A stretch of 64,000 nt of DNA from the NCBI RefSeq assembly GCF_050920415.1, contig NZ_CP169309.1, one strand, 5' to 3'. Shown here in pieces: positions 1,440 through 6,978 of this stretch; positions within the stretch are counted from its first letter, which is position 1, and the number at the start of each line of letters is the position of its first letter. The notes under the pieces are model-generated. The model searched no databases. It was not told the origin of the DNA and saw nothing but the letters and a program-made list of their open reading frames with translations. The DNA comes from Escherichia coli (GTDB lineage Bacteria > Pseudomonadota > Gammaproteobacteria > Enterobacterales > Enterobacteriaceae). The position numbers and the translations under genes are program-made.

Positions 1440-2101
1440 ATAACCAGTATTTACAGTTTGTGCGTGAGCAGCTCACGATCGCCACCGCTGATTTGAGTGG
1501 AGCAACAAAAGGTCAGCTTGAAGCCTGGCAGGAGAATGCCATGTTCAATACAGGGCGTTACAGACGTAAAAAAATCCGGTACCGCGATAAGGTCACTGGA
1601 AAAATAGTAACGCTGGATAATCCACCGATCCCGGGAAAGCAATCGCTGGCGAAAGGTTCATCAATTGCCCTGGTCAGTCCGGTTGAGTTTTCGACATCAT
1701 CATGGCGACGCGCCGTTCTGTCTCTTGAAGAACATCATAAAGCCTGGCTGCTGTGGTGTTACAGCGGTAGCATTTGCTGGGAGCATCAGATCGCGATAAC
1801 GCAGTGGGCGTGGATTGAATTTAATGCTCAATCCGGTACCAGAAAAATTGCAGGAAAAACTCTGGTGCGCCTGAAGACGTTGAGCTGGTTGGCGGCGCAG
1901 GCGGTAAAAGCTGAGCTTTTTGGTGGGGAAGGTTACGAATACCAGGAACTGGCGTTACTGGTGGGAGTAACAACCAAAAACTGGTCCAAGACATTTACTG
2001 GTCACTGGGTTGCAATGAAACACATTTTTCATCGGCTGGATAGTGAAGCTTTATTGTTAGTGGAGAGAACACGTTCAAAACAAAAGGCGGCATTTTCATA
2101 G
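1430..2101 (+). CDS. Putative late-gene antiterminator (Q-family by position)
   Basis: 223-aa ORF immediately upstream of a promoter plus short-transcript terminator (pR'/tR' arrangement) and the late region; assignment by synteny, sequence not confidently recognised. Confidence 0.45.
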   Translation: MRMNNQYLQFVREQLTIATADLSGATKGQLEAWQENAMFNTGRYRRKKIRYRDKVTGKIVTLDNPPIPGKQSLAKGSSIALVSPVEFSTSSWRRAVLSLEEHHKAWLLWCYSGSICWEHQIAITQWAWIEFNAQSGTRKIAGKTLVRLKTLSWLAAQAVKAELFGGEGYEYQELALLVGVTTKNWSKTFTGHWVAMKHIFHRLDSEALLLVERTRSKQKAAFS

Positions 2102-2108
2102 CAAAGTA

Positions 2109-2137
2109 TTGCAAAAGTAGATTAAAACGCATATATT
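2109..2137 (+). promoter_or_regulatory. pR'-like late promoter (TTGCAA -17 bp- TATATT) immediately after the Q-like stop
   Basis: -35 TTGCAA at 2109-2114, 17-bp spacer, -10 TATATT at 2132-2137. Confidence 0.4.
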
Positions 2138-2188
2138 TCGTGTAAATCTGATATTTTGCCGTTTTTATACGTGATGGCAAAGCTAGTA

Positions 2189-2214
2189 AAACCCGCGACC
2201 GAGCGGGTTTTTTA
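2189..2214 (+). terminator. tR'-like rho-independent terminator (aaacccgc-gaccga-gcgggttt + T-run)
   Basis: Perfect 8-bp stem, 6-nt loop, followed by T-run; about 50-70 nt downstream of the pR'-like promoter, as for lambda 6S RNA. Confidence 0.6.
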
Positions 2215-2287
2215 TCCCCCCAAAAAATGGCATAGACATTAAACGTGATGACGATTGTGCCAATACTTTCTCCATCAATGACGCCCC

Positions 2288-2317
2288 TTGACTGCATGGA
2301 ATCCAATTTGTTATGTA
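2288..2317 (+). promoter_or_regulatory. Candidate sigma70 promoter for the moron membrane-protein gene (TTGACT ... TGtTATGTA)
   Basis: Consensus-like -35 TTGACT at 2288-2293; extended -10-like TGnTATGTA about 18 bp downstream; lies after tR' and before the ATG at 2356. Confidence 0.3.
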
Positions 2318-2355
2318 ATATGTGTTGATATTTTTGAGTTGTTAATGGTGTTACT

Positions 2356-3069
2356 ATGAATGACAGTGCTCTGCTCAGAAACTCTTCACTTTTTGTTGCT
2401 TATATGGGCTGTCTAGGATGGGGAAGCGCTTATTTCTATGGATGGGGTACTTCATTTTACTATGGCTTTCCATGGTGGGTTGTCGGGGCTGGTGTCGATG
2501 ATGTTGCACGAAGTTTGTTTTATGCTGTGACAGTTATCGTTATATTCCTTATTGGATGGGGAGTTGGTATTGTTTTCTTTTTGGGCATAAAACAAAAGCG
2601 CAATATACAAAATTTGAGTTTTATCCGGCTTTTTCTCGCGATATTGCTGCTTTTTATTCCACCTGTTCTGGAGTTTTCGGTAATTCATCAGCATGTTGAG
2701 CCAGATGTACTGATTTTCTGCATTCTTGCTGCCTTTACAATCACGCTTTTTGTCAGGTCTGGAAGAAGACTTGTTTCAGTCAAATGTTTTTCGGAAATGT
2801 CTTTTATTCGCCATCACCGAATTGAGTTCATGATGGCTGGGTTTATGATTTATTTCTGGGCATTCTCTCTTATTGCCGGTTGGTACAAACCACAGTTTAA
2901 GAGGGAATATCAGGCGATCCACTATGAGAATGTATGGTATTACATTATTGCGCGTTATGATGATCGTCTGGTGTTATCGAAATCATACAGGAGTGGGGGT
3001 AAGAAATTCGTTATATTTAATAGCGGAAATATTAATGATTTTGAAATTAATACTATCAGAGTGCGTTAA
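2356..3069 (+). CDS. Uncharacterised integral membrane protein (about 4 predicted TM helices, Trp/Tyr/Gly-rich N-terminus, about 60-aa soluble C-terminal tail); moron
   Basis: 237-aa ORF, AT-rich codon usage unlike flanking phage genes, hydrophobic segments visible in translation; no family recognised. Confidence 0.7.
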   Translation: MNDSALLRNSSLFVAYMGCLGWGSAYFYGWGTSFYYGFPWWVVGAGVDDVARSLFYAVTVIVIFLIGWGVGIVFFLGIKQKRNIQNLSFIRLFLAILLLFIPPVLEFSVIHQHVEPDVLIFCILAAFTITLFVRSGRRLVSVKCFSEMSFIRHHRIEFMMAGFMIYFWAFSLIAGWYKPQFKREYQAIHYENVWYYIIARYDDRLVLSKSYRSGGKKFVIFNSGNINDFEINTIRVR

Positions 3070-3243
3070 AATTTCTTGAGTAATGAAGATTTTTACTGCC
3101 CGGCATTGAGCGGTTTTTTTATGCCAGAAAAATGGTGTGGTACATAAAATGTGCTGGTGGTTATTAATACCGGTCTTTCAGCTTGCTGGCTTTTTCGACA
3201 AGAGTTATTGGTATGTCACGTTAACCAATAAAGAGAAAAAGAC

Positions 3244-3441
3244 ATGCTAAAACAGCAGGATATGACCGAAACAGCCAGAGTGGTGTTTAATGAATTAAGC
3301 GTCACTGAACCGGCAACAGTTGGGGAAATTGCGCAGAATACTTACCTTTCACGCGAACGCTGCCAGTTAATACTGACCCAGCTTGTGATGGCGGGTCTGG
3401 CAGATTATCAGTTCGGTTGTTACAGACGCCTTCCGCAGTGA
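3244..3441 (+). CDS. Small (65 aa) putative winged-helix/HTH DNA-binding protein
   Basis: Helix-turn-helix-like segment (ATVGEIAQNTYLSRERCQLILTQLVMAGLA); own rho-independent terminator overlapping the stop. Confidence 0.45.
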   Translation: MLKQQDMTETARVVFNELSVTEPATVGEIAQNTYLSRERCQLILTQLVMAGLADYQFGCYRRLPQ

Positions 3442-3452
3442 AGGCTTTTTAC
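3428..3452 (+). terminator. Rho-independent terminator (gccttc-cgcagt-gaaggc + TTTTT)
   Basis: 6-bp perfect stem plus T-run overlapping the stop of the 65-aa ORF. Confidence 0.5.
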
Positions 3453-3591
3453 TTTGTGGTAATGGGCGGCTGGTGGGTGTTAGCGGCACCTGCCAGCCAT
3501 CTGCTCATGTGTTGAGGTCACAAGCAAACCTCAGGCCCATCTGCTTTGCGCAAAAGCGGTATGAGCCTATCAGAGAAGTGCTTATTGATCT

Positions 3592-4677
3592 ATGGCTAAT
3601 ACTGTAAAAATATCCAGTTGTGAGTTAATCAACACTGATTGCCTGGAATTTATCCAGACCTTATCGGAAAACTCTGTCGATCTTATAGTCACAGACCCGC
3701 CATATTTTAAAGTGAAGCCCGAGGGCTGGGATAACCAGTGGAAGGGCGACGATGATTACCTAAAATGGCTGGACCAGTGTCTGGCTCAGTTCTGGCGGGT
3801 ACTGAAGCCTGCCGGAAGTCTTTACCTGTTTTGTGGTCATCGCCTGGCATCTGATATCGAAATCATGATGCGTGAGCGCTTTAATGTGCTGAACCACATT
3901 ATCTGGGCGAAGCCGTCCGGACGCTGGAACGGGTGCAACAAAGAAAGCCTGCGGGCGTATTTCCCGGCAACAGAGCGCATTCTGTTTGCCGAACATTATC
4001 AGGGGCCATATCAGCCAAAAAATGCCGGCTATGCGGCAAAGGAGCGCGAGCTTAAACAACACGTCATGGCCCCGCTGATTTTTTACTTTCGTGATGCGCG
4101 TGAATCACTGGGAATAACGTCCAAACAGATAGCGGAAGCCACCGGAAAGAAAAACATGGTGTCGCACTGGTTTGGTACCAGTCAGTGGCAGTTACCGAAC
4201 GAAGCTGATTACAGAAAACTGCAGGCGCTGTTCGCGCGTGTTGCAGAAGAAAAACACCAGCGTGGGGAGCTGGCAACGCCACACCAACTGCTGGTCAGCA
4301 CATACAGTGAACTGAACCGGCAATATGCCAGTCTGCTTGAGGAATACAAATCTCTGCGGCGTTATTTTTCTGTATCGGCCGCCGTTCCTTATACGGATGT
4401 CTGGACGCATAAGCCCGTACAGTATTATCCGGGTAAGCATCCCTGCGAAAAACCGGCGGATATGTTGCGTCAGATAATTTCTGCCAGCAGTCGTCCGGGG
4501 GATGTGGTTGCGGATTTTTTTATGGGATCGGGGGCAACAATAAAAGCAGCAATGGGATTGGGGCGTCGCACGATTGGGGTTGAACTTGAGTCCGGGCGTT
4601 TTGAACAAACAGTTGGTGAAATATTGGTGCTGAACGATAAATTGCGAAATGCACAATTAGATAAGAACAGGAGCTAA
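3592..4677 (+). CDS. DNA methyltransferase, beta-class (N6-adenine or N4-cytosine); apparently orphan
   Basis: Motif IV DPPY near N-terminus (LIVTDPPYF), motif I FxGxG-like (DFFMGSGAT) near C-terminus; no restriction endonuclease ORF adjacent. Confidence 0.85.
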   Translation: MANTVKISSCELINTDCLEFIQTLSENSVDLIVTDPPYFKVKPEGWDNQWKGDDDYLKWLDQCLAQFWRVLKPAGSLYLFCGHRLASDIEIMMRERFNVLNHIIWAKPSGRWNGCNKESLRAYFPATERILFAEHYQGPYQPKNAGYAAKERELKQHVMAPLIFYFRDARESLGITSKQIAEATGKKNMVSHWFGTSQWQLPNEADYRKLQALFARVAEEKHQRGELATPHQLLVSTYSELNRQYASLLEEYKSLRRYFSVSAAVPYTDVWTHKPVQYYPGKHPCEKPADMLRQIISASSRPGDVVADFFMGSGATIKAAMGLGRRTIGVELESGRFEQTVGEILVLNDKLRNAQLDKNRS

Positions 4678-5197
4678 TCCTCGATTAATATCTAAGCCAA
4701 GCAGGATGCTTGGAAGTTCTGATATATTCTTATCGTTTTTCGGTATTTAAAACTGATTTTCGCTGGTTGCGAAAGCACGTGGTCGGGCACTGCGTTCACA
4801 CATGCAGGAGGGTGTGAAGTCAGCTTTTTTTCTGTGTATTCAGATGGCGTTCTGATTCTATAACGAGTTACGTGGACATCAGGGATGGAGAGAATAGGAA
4901 CGCCATCTTAATACATTTTCCCCGTTTATTTGATATATCTTCCGGATAAGGGATTAGGTCTGGTTTTTTATGTCATTCAATAACGCTCTTCTATACTGTA
5001 TACAATACTTTATCCTGGCAGTGTGTTTAAAACCTGAACTTATCCTTTGTTTCGTTTATAGACAGAAGGGTTAATATCGACTTATCATCAGCAGGATGGC
5101 AACAGATGTGTAAGCAGCTGGTCACCAGTTATACTTCAGTGGTACTTCTGAGTGCTTCTCTCCGTGAAATGATTATCATCCAGATGACAGGAGTAGA

Positions 5198-5476
5198 GTG
5201 AATATTGATGATATTTCCAGGTGCTCCAGCTTGTTGCAGCGTATTGAGGATGTTAATGCTGAACGAGCCAGGGCCTTTAGTCGTTTGACAGTTATATTTT
5301 CTACCCCTGATCGCCTTTCAGGAAAGAACATTGTTTTATTAAACAGTGATGCCATCCATAAGGTTTTTGAAGAGTTCATGGCTGCTAATTCAGAATTGCT
5401 GGCTCTTGTTGAGGAATACAACGAGATAGCCAGCCGTGTCGGTATGGATGAATTCAACGTCATACTTCGTGGATAA
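5198..5476 (+). CDS. Hypothetical protein (92 aa), GTG start with AGGAG RBS
   Basis: ORF preceded by AGGAG at 5187-5191 and followed by a strong terminator. Confidence 0.45.
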   Translation: MNIDDISRCSSLLQRIEDVNAERARAFSRLTVIFSTPDRLSGKNIVLLNSDAIHKVFEEFMAANSELLALVEEYNEIASRVGMDEFNVILRG

Positions 5477-5499
5477 AAACATGCTTCATATTTTCTGTT

Positions 5500-5524
5500 A
5501 GCTCGCTACGGCGAGCTTTTTTTG
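5500..5524 (+). terminator. Rho-independent terminator (agctcgc-tacg-gcgagct + T-run)
   Basis: 7-bp perfect stem, tetraloop, T-run of 8. Confidence 0.65.
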
Positions 5525-5657
5525 TATCTGAGCCACACCTGGCGCACATCAAAAACACAGAGCCTTTCAGGAGGTGCTTACGGGATTGTCAGTGTGACTT
5601 TCACTGTGGGCTGGTAACCATCTGGCGCAGGCTCGTCTACGCAAAGGAAAAGTCACG

Positions 5658-6083
5658 ATGTTAGGTATTTTCAAAAAGAAAACCCGCAAGGCCATCACAG
5701 AAGTGAAGAAGATGGAGAACCGTGATGCGGTGGAGGCGACCGTCTGGGGCGCATATTCCATTGCATATGCCGACGGCACCTGCGATGCGAAAGAAATCGC
5801 AGTACTGGAGAAAACTATTGCTGCGCTTCCTGCTTTTGCACCGTTCTCTGGTGAGATTGCCCAGATGAGCGCCAATATCCGCGCCCGTTATGAAGCGTCA
5901 CCGCGTAGTGCGAATGCGCATGCATTGCGTGAGCTGGCTGATGTGGCGGGGACAACTGAGGCGGTTGACGTGCTTTGCCTCTGTCTGGATATCGCTGATC
6001 AGGATGGCATTGGTCCGGATGAAGAAGCGCAGCTCAAGAAAATTGCACAGGCGCTTCAGTTACCACTGGAGCAGTATCTGTGA
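5658..6083 (+). CDS. TerB-like (tellurite-resistance TerB / DjlA N-terminal domain family) protein
   Basis: 141-aa helical protein whose acidic C-terminal motif (LCLCLDIADQDGIGPDEEAQLKKIAQAL) is typical of TerB-domain proteins. Confidence 0.55.
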   Translation: MLGIFKKKTRKAITEVKKMENRDAVEATVWGAYSIAYADGTCDAKEIAVLEKTIAALPAFAPFSGEIAQMSANIRARYEASPRSANAHALRELADVAGTTEAVDVLCLCLDIADQDGIGPDEEAQLKKIAQALQLPLEQYL

Positions 6084-6232
6084 AAAGTGCGGGCCTTGTG
6101 CTGGCTGCCATCCTGTTGTTTCTGGTAGTGGCAGTGGATTTCACTGGATGGCTGATGTCGGTACTGGCTGATGGTGTGCTGGTGGCGATGGTAACGGTCT
6201 TACTCTGGCCTTTACTTCGCAAATCTGAATAA
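6080..6232 (+). CDS. Possible small hydrophobic membrane protein (about 50 aa, GTG start overlapping the TerB-like stop)
   Basis: Unannotated frame reading VKSAGLVLAAILLFLVVAVDFTGWLMSVLADGVLVAMVTVLLWPLLRKSE; two hydrophobic stretches; start codon uncertain. Confidence 0.3.
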   Translation: MKSAGLVLAAILLFLVVAVDFTGWLMSVLADGVLVAMVTVLLWPLLRKSE

Positions 6233-6317
6233 ACAGCCTACAAAAGGTATCTGCGGGTACCTTTGATAAAGTTTTTTAGGGCCGCTGATGGTCCTTTTTA
6301 TTTACAGGAGAATAAAT

Positions 6318-6710
6318 ATGTCTGAACCCTTATCCGGTTCCGGCACTGCTGTGGCGCTCGGCGGGGCGACGGTATTCGGGCTGTTTACCGGGACGGATTT
6401 CGGGATTGTATTTGGTGCGTTCGCTGGTGCGTTATTTGTGGCAACAATGCCGCAGACACTTTCAGCCTGGCGTGTGGCTGCACATTTTCTGGTGTCCTTT
6501 ATTGTTGGTGTGCTTGGGGCCCGTGGTGTGGCCGGTTACATGGCGGAACGTATTGGGTTTAACAGTGCTTCCGTTGATGCGTTGTGTGCGGTCCTGGTGT
6601 CGGTGCTCTCAGTAAAAGTCCTGTCATTCATCCACCAGCAGGAGATTACATCACTGGTATCCGGTCTGTTCTCCCGTCAGCGTGGAGGAGGTGGTGGTAA
6701 TGACAAATAA
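6318..6710 (+). CDS. Putative holin (multi-TM membrane protein, Gly-rich C-terminus)
   Basis: ATG at 6318 preceded by AGGAG; about 3 hydrophobic helices; lies upstream of the endolysin. Confidence 0.55.
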   Translation: MSEPLSGSGTAVALGGATVFGLFTGTDFGIVFGAFAGALFVATMPQTLSAWRVAAHFLVSFIVGVLGARGVAGYMAERIGFNSASVDALCAVLVSVLSVKVLSFIHQQEITSLVSGLFSRQRGGGGGNDK

Positions 6711-6978
6711 TCTTCCAGGATTACTGAATGCGGCGTTATGTACGGTTATCGTACTGACGCTTTTTTTCTACCGCAGAAAAGAGTCCCGACACAAACCGCT
6801 GATATCGTGGTGCGCCTGGTGTCTGATGCTGTTGTATGCGATAACGCCGTTAAGTTATCTCTGTGGTCATCCGTTGCCGGCAGACTGGCTGGTAGTGATG
6901 CTGAACCTGGTGTTTGGTGTCATGGTAGTGCGTGCGCGCGGTAATGTTTCAAAAATTTTTGCTTTCCTGAGTGGCTGA
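6700..6978 (+). CDS. Putative holin/antiholin-like small membrane protein
   Basis: 92-aa hydrophobic protein (start MTNNLPGLL) overlapping the preceding gene's end and the endolysin start. Confidence 0.5.
   Translation: MTNNLPGLLNAALCTVIVLTLFFYRRKESRHKPLISWCAWCLMLLYAITPLSYLCGHPLPADWLVVMLNLVFGVMVVRARGNVSKIFAFLSG

Follow-up and report, generated by a model that had tools for sequence, protein, structure and literature searches.

The window, that is, the whole 64,000-nt stretch of Escherichia coli DNA analysed here, is the late region of a phiP27-like lambdoid prophage, and the locus is syntenic with phiP27, SerU-LTIIb and E. coli prophages. Upstream lie genes encoding DUF968, RusA and then Q (PF06323, E = 3.6e-89). 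From Q, the order continues with a PR'/tR'-like pair, a 237-aa ORF, a 65-aa ORF, a DNA N6/N4 methyltransferase (MTase), the gap studied here, a 92-aa ORF and a terminator, followed by TerB, DUF3927, two holins and an endolysin. Directly after Q are a PR'-like promoter (2109–2137, + strand; TTGCAA-17-TATATT) and a tR'-like terminator (~2191–2212, + strand; hairpin AAACCCGC..GCGGGUUUUUU plus a U-run, ΔG −14.2, z −4.1), and this predicted promoter and hairpin together form a classical PR'/tR' arrangement.

The gap (4678–5197, 520 nt) is bordered on the left by the MTase gene (3592–4677, + strand; 361-aa ORF, PF01555, E = 7.3e-43), which is labelled DNA-methyltransferase in RefSeq relatives, and on the right by the 92-aa ORF (5198–5476, + strand; phrog_2873, PHROG E = 9.2e-47; RefSeq WP_001017777), which has a GTG start at 5198. 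No ORF of more than 35 aa is present in any frame of the gap, and its G+C content is 0.404 vs 0.512 in the window, which places it in the 6th percentile among 520-nt windows. The run from 4678 to 5175 is the longest in the 64-kb window that is devoid of ORFs of at least 40 aa (498 nt vs 213 nt for the runner-up). The gap is carried by 50 of 5,426 complete E. coli genomes at 92–99.8% identity, and RefSeq places no annotation in it in any of these 50 carriers. The initial annotation had described an AT-rich non-coding stretch of about 520 bp between the MTase and the next gene and had called it unusually long, and both points hold. It had also taken the gap to separate a moron cluster from a TerB-like module, which needs amending on the right-hand side: the neighbour there is the 92-aa moron, closed by its own strong intrinsic terminator (5500–5523, + strand; 7-bp stem with 5 G-C pairs and then a T-run, ΔG −13.0, z −3.8), and TerB does not adjoin the gap.

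We are close to certain of the anatomy of the gap, a tRNA slot with a dead tRNA-Thr and a conserved + strand structure. It is a composite of a conserved RNA-structure module (4743–4915, + strand), a fast-evolving, indel-rich spacer (4916–5076), a decayed tRNA-Thr gene (5078–5141, + strand) and the leader of the 92-aa ORF (~5170–5197, + strand), in which inspection of the sequence revealed a Shine-Dalgarno motif (AGGAG, 5189–5193). Just 3' of the MTase stop there is also a small hairpin (4697–4713, + strand; CCAAGCA/UGCUUGG, RNAfold ΔG −9.3 kcal/mol, z −2.6) with no U-tract behind it. This hairpin was found only in window-like prophages, and its position in the other clade is occupied by a different, terminator-like one (L021 4063–4091, ΔG −12.1, then U5). 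As a whole, the gap is an ordinary, already known kind of prophage architecture with one structured RNA element.

A tRNA/cargo slot with a decayed tRNA-Thr gene

An nhmmer profile built from six phage tRNA-Thr variants gave a single match in the 128 kb searched, at 5078–5141 (E = 4.8e-7), and this segment matches the intact phage tRNA-Thr of loci L002, L004 and L007 at 79.6% identity over 54 nt. Both the D stem and the anticodon stem are disrupted, and the segment has lost the CCA and the 3' strand of the acceptor stem. Thus, judging from significant homology at a syntenic position combined with loss of the structure that defines a tRNA, this segment is a dead tRNA-Thr(UGU) gene. The initial annotation, which had seen no tRNA-like sequence in the gap, was wrong in this respect, and the tRNA/Infernal-type search that it had proposed had a divided outcome, as the remnant was found by the nhmmer profile and no intact tRNA was found. 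ARAGORN reported no intact tRNA or tmRNA gene in the window, the gap was also negative in relaxed settings, and the Rfam tRNA model gave no match at E ≤ 10 across 3500–6500. The one call made in the window by ARAGORN in mitochondrial mode ('mtRNA-Pro') is spurious, since it is absent from relatives. No remnant of the tRNA-Gly partner, or of any other tRNA type, was detectable in the gap. The tRNA-Thr remnant is present in all carriers, and its scores are unequal (34.2 bits in strain 442/2, 26.1 in the window and 16.5 in the L037 type), which indicates independent decay of one ancestral tRNA gene.

Rates of change were compared as the fraction of variable alignment columns per nt among 19 distinct close variants. 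The flanking genes were stable (MTase, 0.035; 92-aa ORF, 0.043), as was the segment directly behind the MTase (4678–4742, 0.046). Variability was 0.081 in the module, with zero variable columns within 4833–4919, and rose to 0.205 in the spacer, which also carries 7-, 3- and 1-nt indels, and to 0.313 in the tRNA remnant, where one strain has an 11-nt deletion; 5144–5197 showed a value of 0.111. The spacer and the tRNA remnant therefore accumulate both substitutions and indels at several times the rate of the genes on either side, and the 3' two-thirds of the gap behave as unconstrained DNA. The spacer had no significant homologue. Homology to the second inverted repeat of L021 and L004 was considered and rejected, as the 27-nt colinear match to L021 was reached by 22 of 300 shuffles. 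The spacer has no detectable function and is possibly a relic of three elements that are seen in L021 and L004, a second inverted repeat, a terminator and a tRNA-promoter region.

In phiP27, ileZ, argO and stx2e occupy the segment behind the homologous MTase, and in the LT-IIb phage the same segment contains tRNA-Arg/Gly and tRNA-Thr/Gly. More broadly, tRNA genes lie within 1.5 kb of the MTase stop in 66 of the 80 IMG/VR loci that encode relatives of the MTase. The gap is therefore a tRNA/cargo slot, and the earlier statement that tRNAs occupy this site in Stx phages was borne out for phages of the Stx/phiP27 type. The gap has the same place as their tRNA cluster (ileZ-argN-argO upstream of stx; tRNA-Thr/tRNA-Gly in LT-II and related prophages), namely directly behind the homologous MTase and ahead of cargo genes and holins, and the remnant at 5078–5141 is homologous to the tRNA-Thr(UGU) of this cluster. 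Unlike the cluster, however, the gap has no functional tRNA left and no tRNA-Gly, and it has the 92-aa moron in the 3' part of the cassette.

Locus L021, which has the layout MTase, module, second inverted repeat, terminator, tRNA-Thr, tRNA-Gly, several terminators, TerB, DUF3927 and holin, probably represents the intact ancestral arrangement. Compared with L021, the window has lost ~200 nt ahead of the tRNA, and where L021 has the 3' end of tRNA-Thr and the tRNA-Gly, the window has the 92-aa ORF with its terminator. The moron thus appears to have replaced the tRNA-Thr 3' end together with the tRNA-Gly that followed it. All carriers examined have the 92-aa ORF together with the gap, including those in which DUF1883 takes the place of TerB. 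These comparisons correct the prophage annotation, in that what looked like a long 'empty' stretch is the decayed form of a tRNA cassette and hides no gene, and they document the turnover of a tRNA/toxin cargo slot in phiP27-/Stx-like phages, in which tRNA-Thr and tRNA-Gly gave way to the 92-aa moron, next to which either TerB or DUF1883 is found.

Conservation and predicted structure of the module

The module at 4743–4915 is the sole segment of the gap with homologues beyond the near-identical carriers. It recurs in a second clade of E. coli prophages (L004–L007, L015 and L021), with 78–80% identity to L004, L005 and L006 and a partial match to L007. There it lies behind the MTase or, in L007, behind a short remnant of the MTase 3' end, which itself comes after a DUF1133 Q-like gene and the tR'-like terminator belonging to that gene. 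Identity between the two clades was 0.68–0.72 at the MTase 3' end, ~0.5 in 4642–4741, 0.74–0.84 in the module and 0.36–0.6 thereafter, and the flanks of the module do not align between the clades. Conservation was strongest in an invariant 20-mer (CUGGUUGCGAAAGCACGUGG, 4763–4782) just inside the structure described below.

The module was found in 56 of 5,426 complete E. coli genomes. Scans of viral contigs, of one genome per species and of metagenomes returned the same three sequence types only, plus chance matches, and megablast and blastn searches of a phage database with the gap as query gave no match. Among the 80 MTase loci, nhmmer detected the module only in the window-like ones. The module is dispensable, since most of the relatives that bear the MTase lack it.

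Minimum free energy (MFE) folds of the + strand predicted a branched stem structure (4762–4831) with a 7-bp closing helix (4762–4768/4818–4824), followed by U7 (4825–4831). The branched structure is 63–65 nt long and ends at U6–7, and both clades keep the helix and the U-tract. Of the 8 variants folded, 7 had the closing helix in their MFE structure (−18.6 to −23.1 kcal/mol). The exception was the window's own copy, where a private substitution, C4820T, changes a G-C pair of the closing helix to G·U and thereby tips the MFE to two separate hairpins. One of these is a simple terminator-like hairpin at 4790–4823, which is the alternative fold of this region (4790–4801 paired with 4812–4823; ΔG −11.9, z only −0.3). 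Substitutions in the closing helix preserve pairing (GC to AU in L021, UG to CG in L007 and GC to GU in the window). The branched, cloverleaf-like topology prompted us to consider the module as a diverged tRNA, which was rejected, as no similarity was found to any of the six tRNA types of related phages.

Behind the U-tract lies a long, nearly perfect hairpin of ~80 nt (4834–4915, + strand; arms 4835–4859/4891–4915, ΔG −32.5 kcal/mol, z −4.9), made up of a 25-nt inverted repeat with 88% complementarity. The L021 version has a z of −4.6, and the hairpin is much weaker in the L007 type (−16 kcal/mol). In the second clade, the hairpin had a predicted energy of −27 to −33 kcal/mol on the + strand but only −6 to −14 on the − strand, because of several G·U pairs in the stem, and this asymmetry points to selection on a + strand RNA rather than on a DNA palindrome. 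The inverted repeat is not a dispersed repeat or MITE, as it occurs at 1–2 places per genome and always in this prophage context.

When the predicted pairs were examined across the alignment, 98% of paired cells could pair, compared to 30–44% with the partners slid by 1–3 columns, and there were 15 extra pair types and 2 pairs changed on both sides; these counts derive from eight distinct sequences of ~3 types, the same ones from which the structure was derived. The covariation rests on few events, as only ~3 sequence types exist in all the collections searched. Overall, the module appears to be the single element of the gap under constraint, a + strand RNA structure with a U-tract. Against selection on it, similarity islands in mosaic phage genomes can mark recombination boundaries.

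Candidate roles of the module and competing explanations

From its sequence and predicted fold, we put the odds that the module is a transcription stop or processing signal at about even. The whole package, in which the gap is a tRNA slot that was emptied of its tRNA genes and has retained a terminator/processing module on the late transcript, we hold to be just as likely true as false. Because the PR'/tR'-like pair sits directly after Q, the module belongs further downstream within the late unit. Its identification as the late promoter region (PR'/qut/tR') was rejected, as it lies 2.6 kb downstream of Q and a PR'/tR'-like pair is present next to Q; a PR'/qut role was also ruled out by its co-occurrence with two unrelated Q types, PF06323 and DUF1133.

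As a terminator/processing module it would work as follows. The closing helix and U-tract would form an intrinsic terminator on the late strand, which would stop polymerase that lacks Q modification, whether from tR' read-through or from transcription started at an MTase promoter in the lysogen, and the stop would fall ahead of the cargo and lysis genes. Upon induction, Q-modified polymerase would pass this terminator; read-through of terminators by Q-modified polymerase is established for lambdoid late operons generally. The long hairpin, which would exist on read-through late transcripts only, would then be a processing or stability element, e.g. an RNase III-type site that parts the MTase segment from the tRNA/lysis segment, and the remainder of the gap would be functionless.

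The module resembles the known terminators of lambdoid late operons (tR', downstream and moron terminators) in lying on the late strand of a Q-dependent unit and in having a helix that abuts U6–7, and relatives carry a series of such hairpins between MTase and holin. It differs from a tR' behind PR' in its distance from Q, and unlike the simple G+C-rich terminators of lambdoid phages it is predicted to be branched. Against a terminator, moreover, shuffled sequences fold as stably as the simple hairpin, terminators are not typically branched, and a consensus terminator scan made no call at 4762–4831, because the loop exceeds 8 nt. The ~80-nt hairpin, with its near-perfect stem of ~24–30 bp, is comparable to the RNase III hairpins of phage polycistronic transcripts (T7 early/late, lambda N-leader and sib), and by this analogy its intergenic location in a long phage transcript would also fit. 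RNase III sites are not known to have a sequence consensus.

A possible, if rather doubtful, alternative for the 3' third of the gap (~4970–5197) is that it mainly serves as the promoter region of the 92-aa moron, allowing Q-independent expression from the lysogen. This would not exclude a terminator/processing module at 4743–4915, since it concerns another part of the gap. Two sigma-70-like sites are consistent with such a promoter (TAGACA-18-TATCAT at 5059–5088, 10/12 matches, and ATGTCA-16-TATACT at 4970–4997), and the 92-aa ORF has its own strong terminator and always travels with the gap. However, promoter prediction gave 4 sites vs 3.0 ± 1.8 in shuffles, and the −10/−35 candidates are mutated or deleted in close variants (5060, 5081–5087). 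In phage mEp460, whose homologue lies behind Q, tR' and tRNAs, the sequence is shared from ~28 nt ahead of the GTG into the first part of the ORF; the overlap with the upstream region of that homologue is limited to these ~28 nt. With respect to moron criteria, the 92-aa ORF thus has its own terminator and is an insertion relative to L021 and L004, and the promoter-like sites ahead of it are at chance level and not conserved. The suggestion of the initial annotation that the gap could hold a promoter therefore found no support, and the module is terminator-like with a long hairpin rather than promoter-like. Its wider proposal of a regulatory element, an sRNA or a decayed gene does cover what was found, although the decayed gene is a tRNA gene and not a protein gene, for which there was no homology, and the part that looks regulatory is confined to 4743–4915.

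It is unlikely that the 5' half of the module (~4743–4831) is a small regulatory RNA that ends at an Hfq-binding U7 tail. Such an RNA could be released by processing of the MTase mRNA 3' UTR or have a promoter of its own, with the 20-mer CUGGUUGCGAAAGCACGUGG as seed or scaffold, and would resemble the Pas, AgvB/AsxR or StxS RNAs of lambdoid prophages, which lie between Q and the lysis genes. The compact 63–65-nt structure closing in U6–7 and the peak of conservation just inside it are in keeping with an sRNA, and lambdoid prophages are documented to encode sRNAs with a terminator hairpin and U-tract in roughly this region (PMC8550237; bioRxiv 10.64898/2026.05.13.724894). In EPEC prophages, Pas sRNAs are encoded between Q and the holin (PMC8550237; bioRxiv 10.64898/2026.05.13.724894), and some prophage sRNAs, e.g. 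PasA, are processed from longer transcripts (PMC8550237). An sRNA would also be compatible with a terminator at this position. Against it, there is no convincing promoter upstream (the + strand scan of 4678–4830 was empty, and a TTGACA in the other clade has no −10 partner), and the putative seed is base-paired in the predicted structure. A search of 3500–6500 with Rfam 15, including STnc100 and DicF, yielded no family at E ≤ 10 other than eukaryotic snoRNA/miRNA models (E = 0.67–8) far under their gathering scores. When 2000–6400 of the window was compared by blastn (word size 7) with the E2348/69 pasA, pasC and pasD1 loci, only protein-coding neighbours matched and nothing within 4678–5197. 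The module shares with the Hfq-dependent sRNAs of pathogenic E. coli (PasA, PasC, PasD, STnc100, AgvB, AsxR and StxS) a short, structured form with a predicted terminator-like stem and U-tract, and a location between Q and the lysis cassette of a lambdoid prophage, but it has no sequence or covariance-model similarity to them and has a different and much rarer distribution (LT-II ETEC, porcine ETEC and bovine strains).

It is similarly improbable that the entire gap, including the module, is functionless debris, in which case the module would be a mosaic segment with a more recent common ancestor than its flanks and its hairpins would be leftovers, e.g. former terminators of the lost tRNA cassette. 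In favour of debris, phage genomes are mosaic and similarity between them starts and stops abruptly, the module is missing from most relatives, it is rare and limited to three sequence types, the closing helix is weakened by mutation in the window's copy, and the remainder of the gap is demonstrably decaying. Against debris, the helix substitutions are nearly all pair-preserving, with G·U pairs that work on the + strand only; 4833–4919 is invariant vs 0.2–0.3 variable columns per nt in the adjacent 4916–5143 of the same genomes; and identity in the module is above that of the adjacent MTase 3' coding sequence.

We also give a low probability to 4743–4915 being an undescribed prophage RNA element, in which a 63–65-nt branched RNA with its U-tract and the ~80-nt hairpin would arise from the late or MTase transcript and act as an Hfq-type sRNA/sponge or as a conditional terminator of cargo and lysis genes. 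Such an element would belong to a limited set of E. coli prophages, found for the most part in LT-II ETEC, porcine ETEC and bovine strains. In lysogens, the module is a candidate for shielding the cargo and lysis genes from transcription that has not been antiterminated, or for being the source of a small RNA, and either role would be relevant to the silencing of prophage cargo (toxins in sister phages) before induction. As one testable RNA element in a rare prophage lineage, its practical consequence is small.

Very improbable is a small protein gene or gene remnant hidden in the gap, such as a frame through 4723–4860 whose translation in some variants is MICAGCESTW...GVKPAF.CVFRWRSD..., with weak similarity to a phage zinc-binding domain: PF24071 (17.6 bits, E = 0.0035) and phrog_2147 (E = 0.018) match the same stretch, and the L009 type regains the frame relative to the other clade through a 4-nt deletion and a 1-nt change, but the PF24071 score is below the Pfam cut-off of 27, versions from the other clade do not reproduce the match, the frame in the window is without a start codon or Shine-Dalgarno, and the length of a T-run shifts the C-terminus among near-identical variants (32, 34, 40, 43, 46, 47 or 74 aa). 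Six-frame pieces of at least 20 aa had no significant match in Pfam or PHROGs, and the longest conceptual ORF had no homologue among 5.8 billion protein clusters, so that the proposed check for gene remnants revealed no protein homology and no degraded ORF. Conserved small ORFs were rejected because of frame-breaking indels and T-run length variation, with those at 4970–5074 and 5106–5201 broken by indels in close variants. The strains that carry the module include many from pigs and cattle, several of them named ETEC, as well as human isolates such as 357900 and P393-F10.

Exchange of genes downstream of the 92-aa ORF

The 92-aa ORF (phrog_2873) and its own strong terminator occupy window 5198–5523, and this ORF and the gap at 4678–5197 were invariably found together. 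The N-terminus of the encoded protein is 16 residues shorter than the PHROG profile. Its homologue in phage mEp460, which lacks annotation there, lies downstream of Q, tR' and the tRNAs, in the same slot that is occupied by stx in Stx phages.

On the 3' side of the 92-aa ORF, TerB and DUF3927 (window 5658–6232) were replaced in some carriers of the gap by a reverse-strand DUF1883 gene (L036 4151–4420; L037 4156–4425). Because DUF1883 stands in place of TerB and DUF3927 in these prophages, the comparison shows that cargo is swapped at the slot downstream of the 92-aa ORF. The leader of TerB, which follows the terminator of the 92-aa ORF (window 5530–5657) and contains short inverted repeats (cagtgtgactttcactg), was conserved in the second-clade prophage L021, where it likewise lies upstream of TerB; the match in L004, a second-clade prophage without TerB, was limited to the first ~50 nt.

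The methyltransferase junction and the closing helix

Two second-clade prophages that carry the conserved module, L007 and L004, lack the methyltransferase gene but retain a short remnant of its 3' end next to the module. In L007 this remnant (3861–3903) is flanked on one side by a DUF1133 Q-like gene and its terminator and on the other by the module; the corresponding stretch of L004 was read by eye. Since the remnant persists beside the module, these loci suggest that the methyltransferase–module junction is ancestral and that the methyltransferase was deleted in these prophages.

Within the conserved structure, a C-to-T change at window 4820 was private to the window's copy, as C was present in all 18 other close variants and in the second clade. 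This change converts a G-C pair to G.U and weakens the closing helix.

The region directly 3' of Q

Immediately downstream of the Q gene, at window 2109–2212, a sequence resembling a promoter (TTGCAA-17-TATATT) is accompanied by a strong hairpin with a U-run; together these are the PR'/tR' pair anticipated after Q. A short transcript of ~70 nt would be produced from this pair, similar in length to the StxS RNA that Stx phages encode.

Related DNA under other taxon labels

The gap and flanks of L039 (JAEWMQ010000075.1), a 2.7-kb contig labelled as a 'Bacillota bacterium' MAG, were almost base-for-base identical to the window, and this contig is probably E. coli prophage DNA that was mis-binned. 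A phage deposited as infecting Actinobacillus pleuropneumoniae (H53; PP818812.1) exhibited 83% DNA identity to the TerB–holin segment (window 5501–6838), an unexpected likeness to an E. coli prophage for a phage recorded from another bacterial genus.
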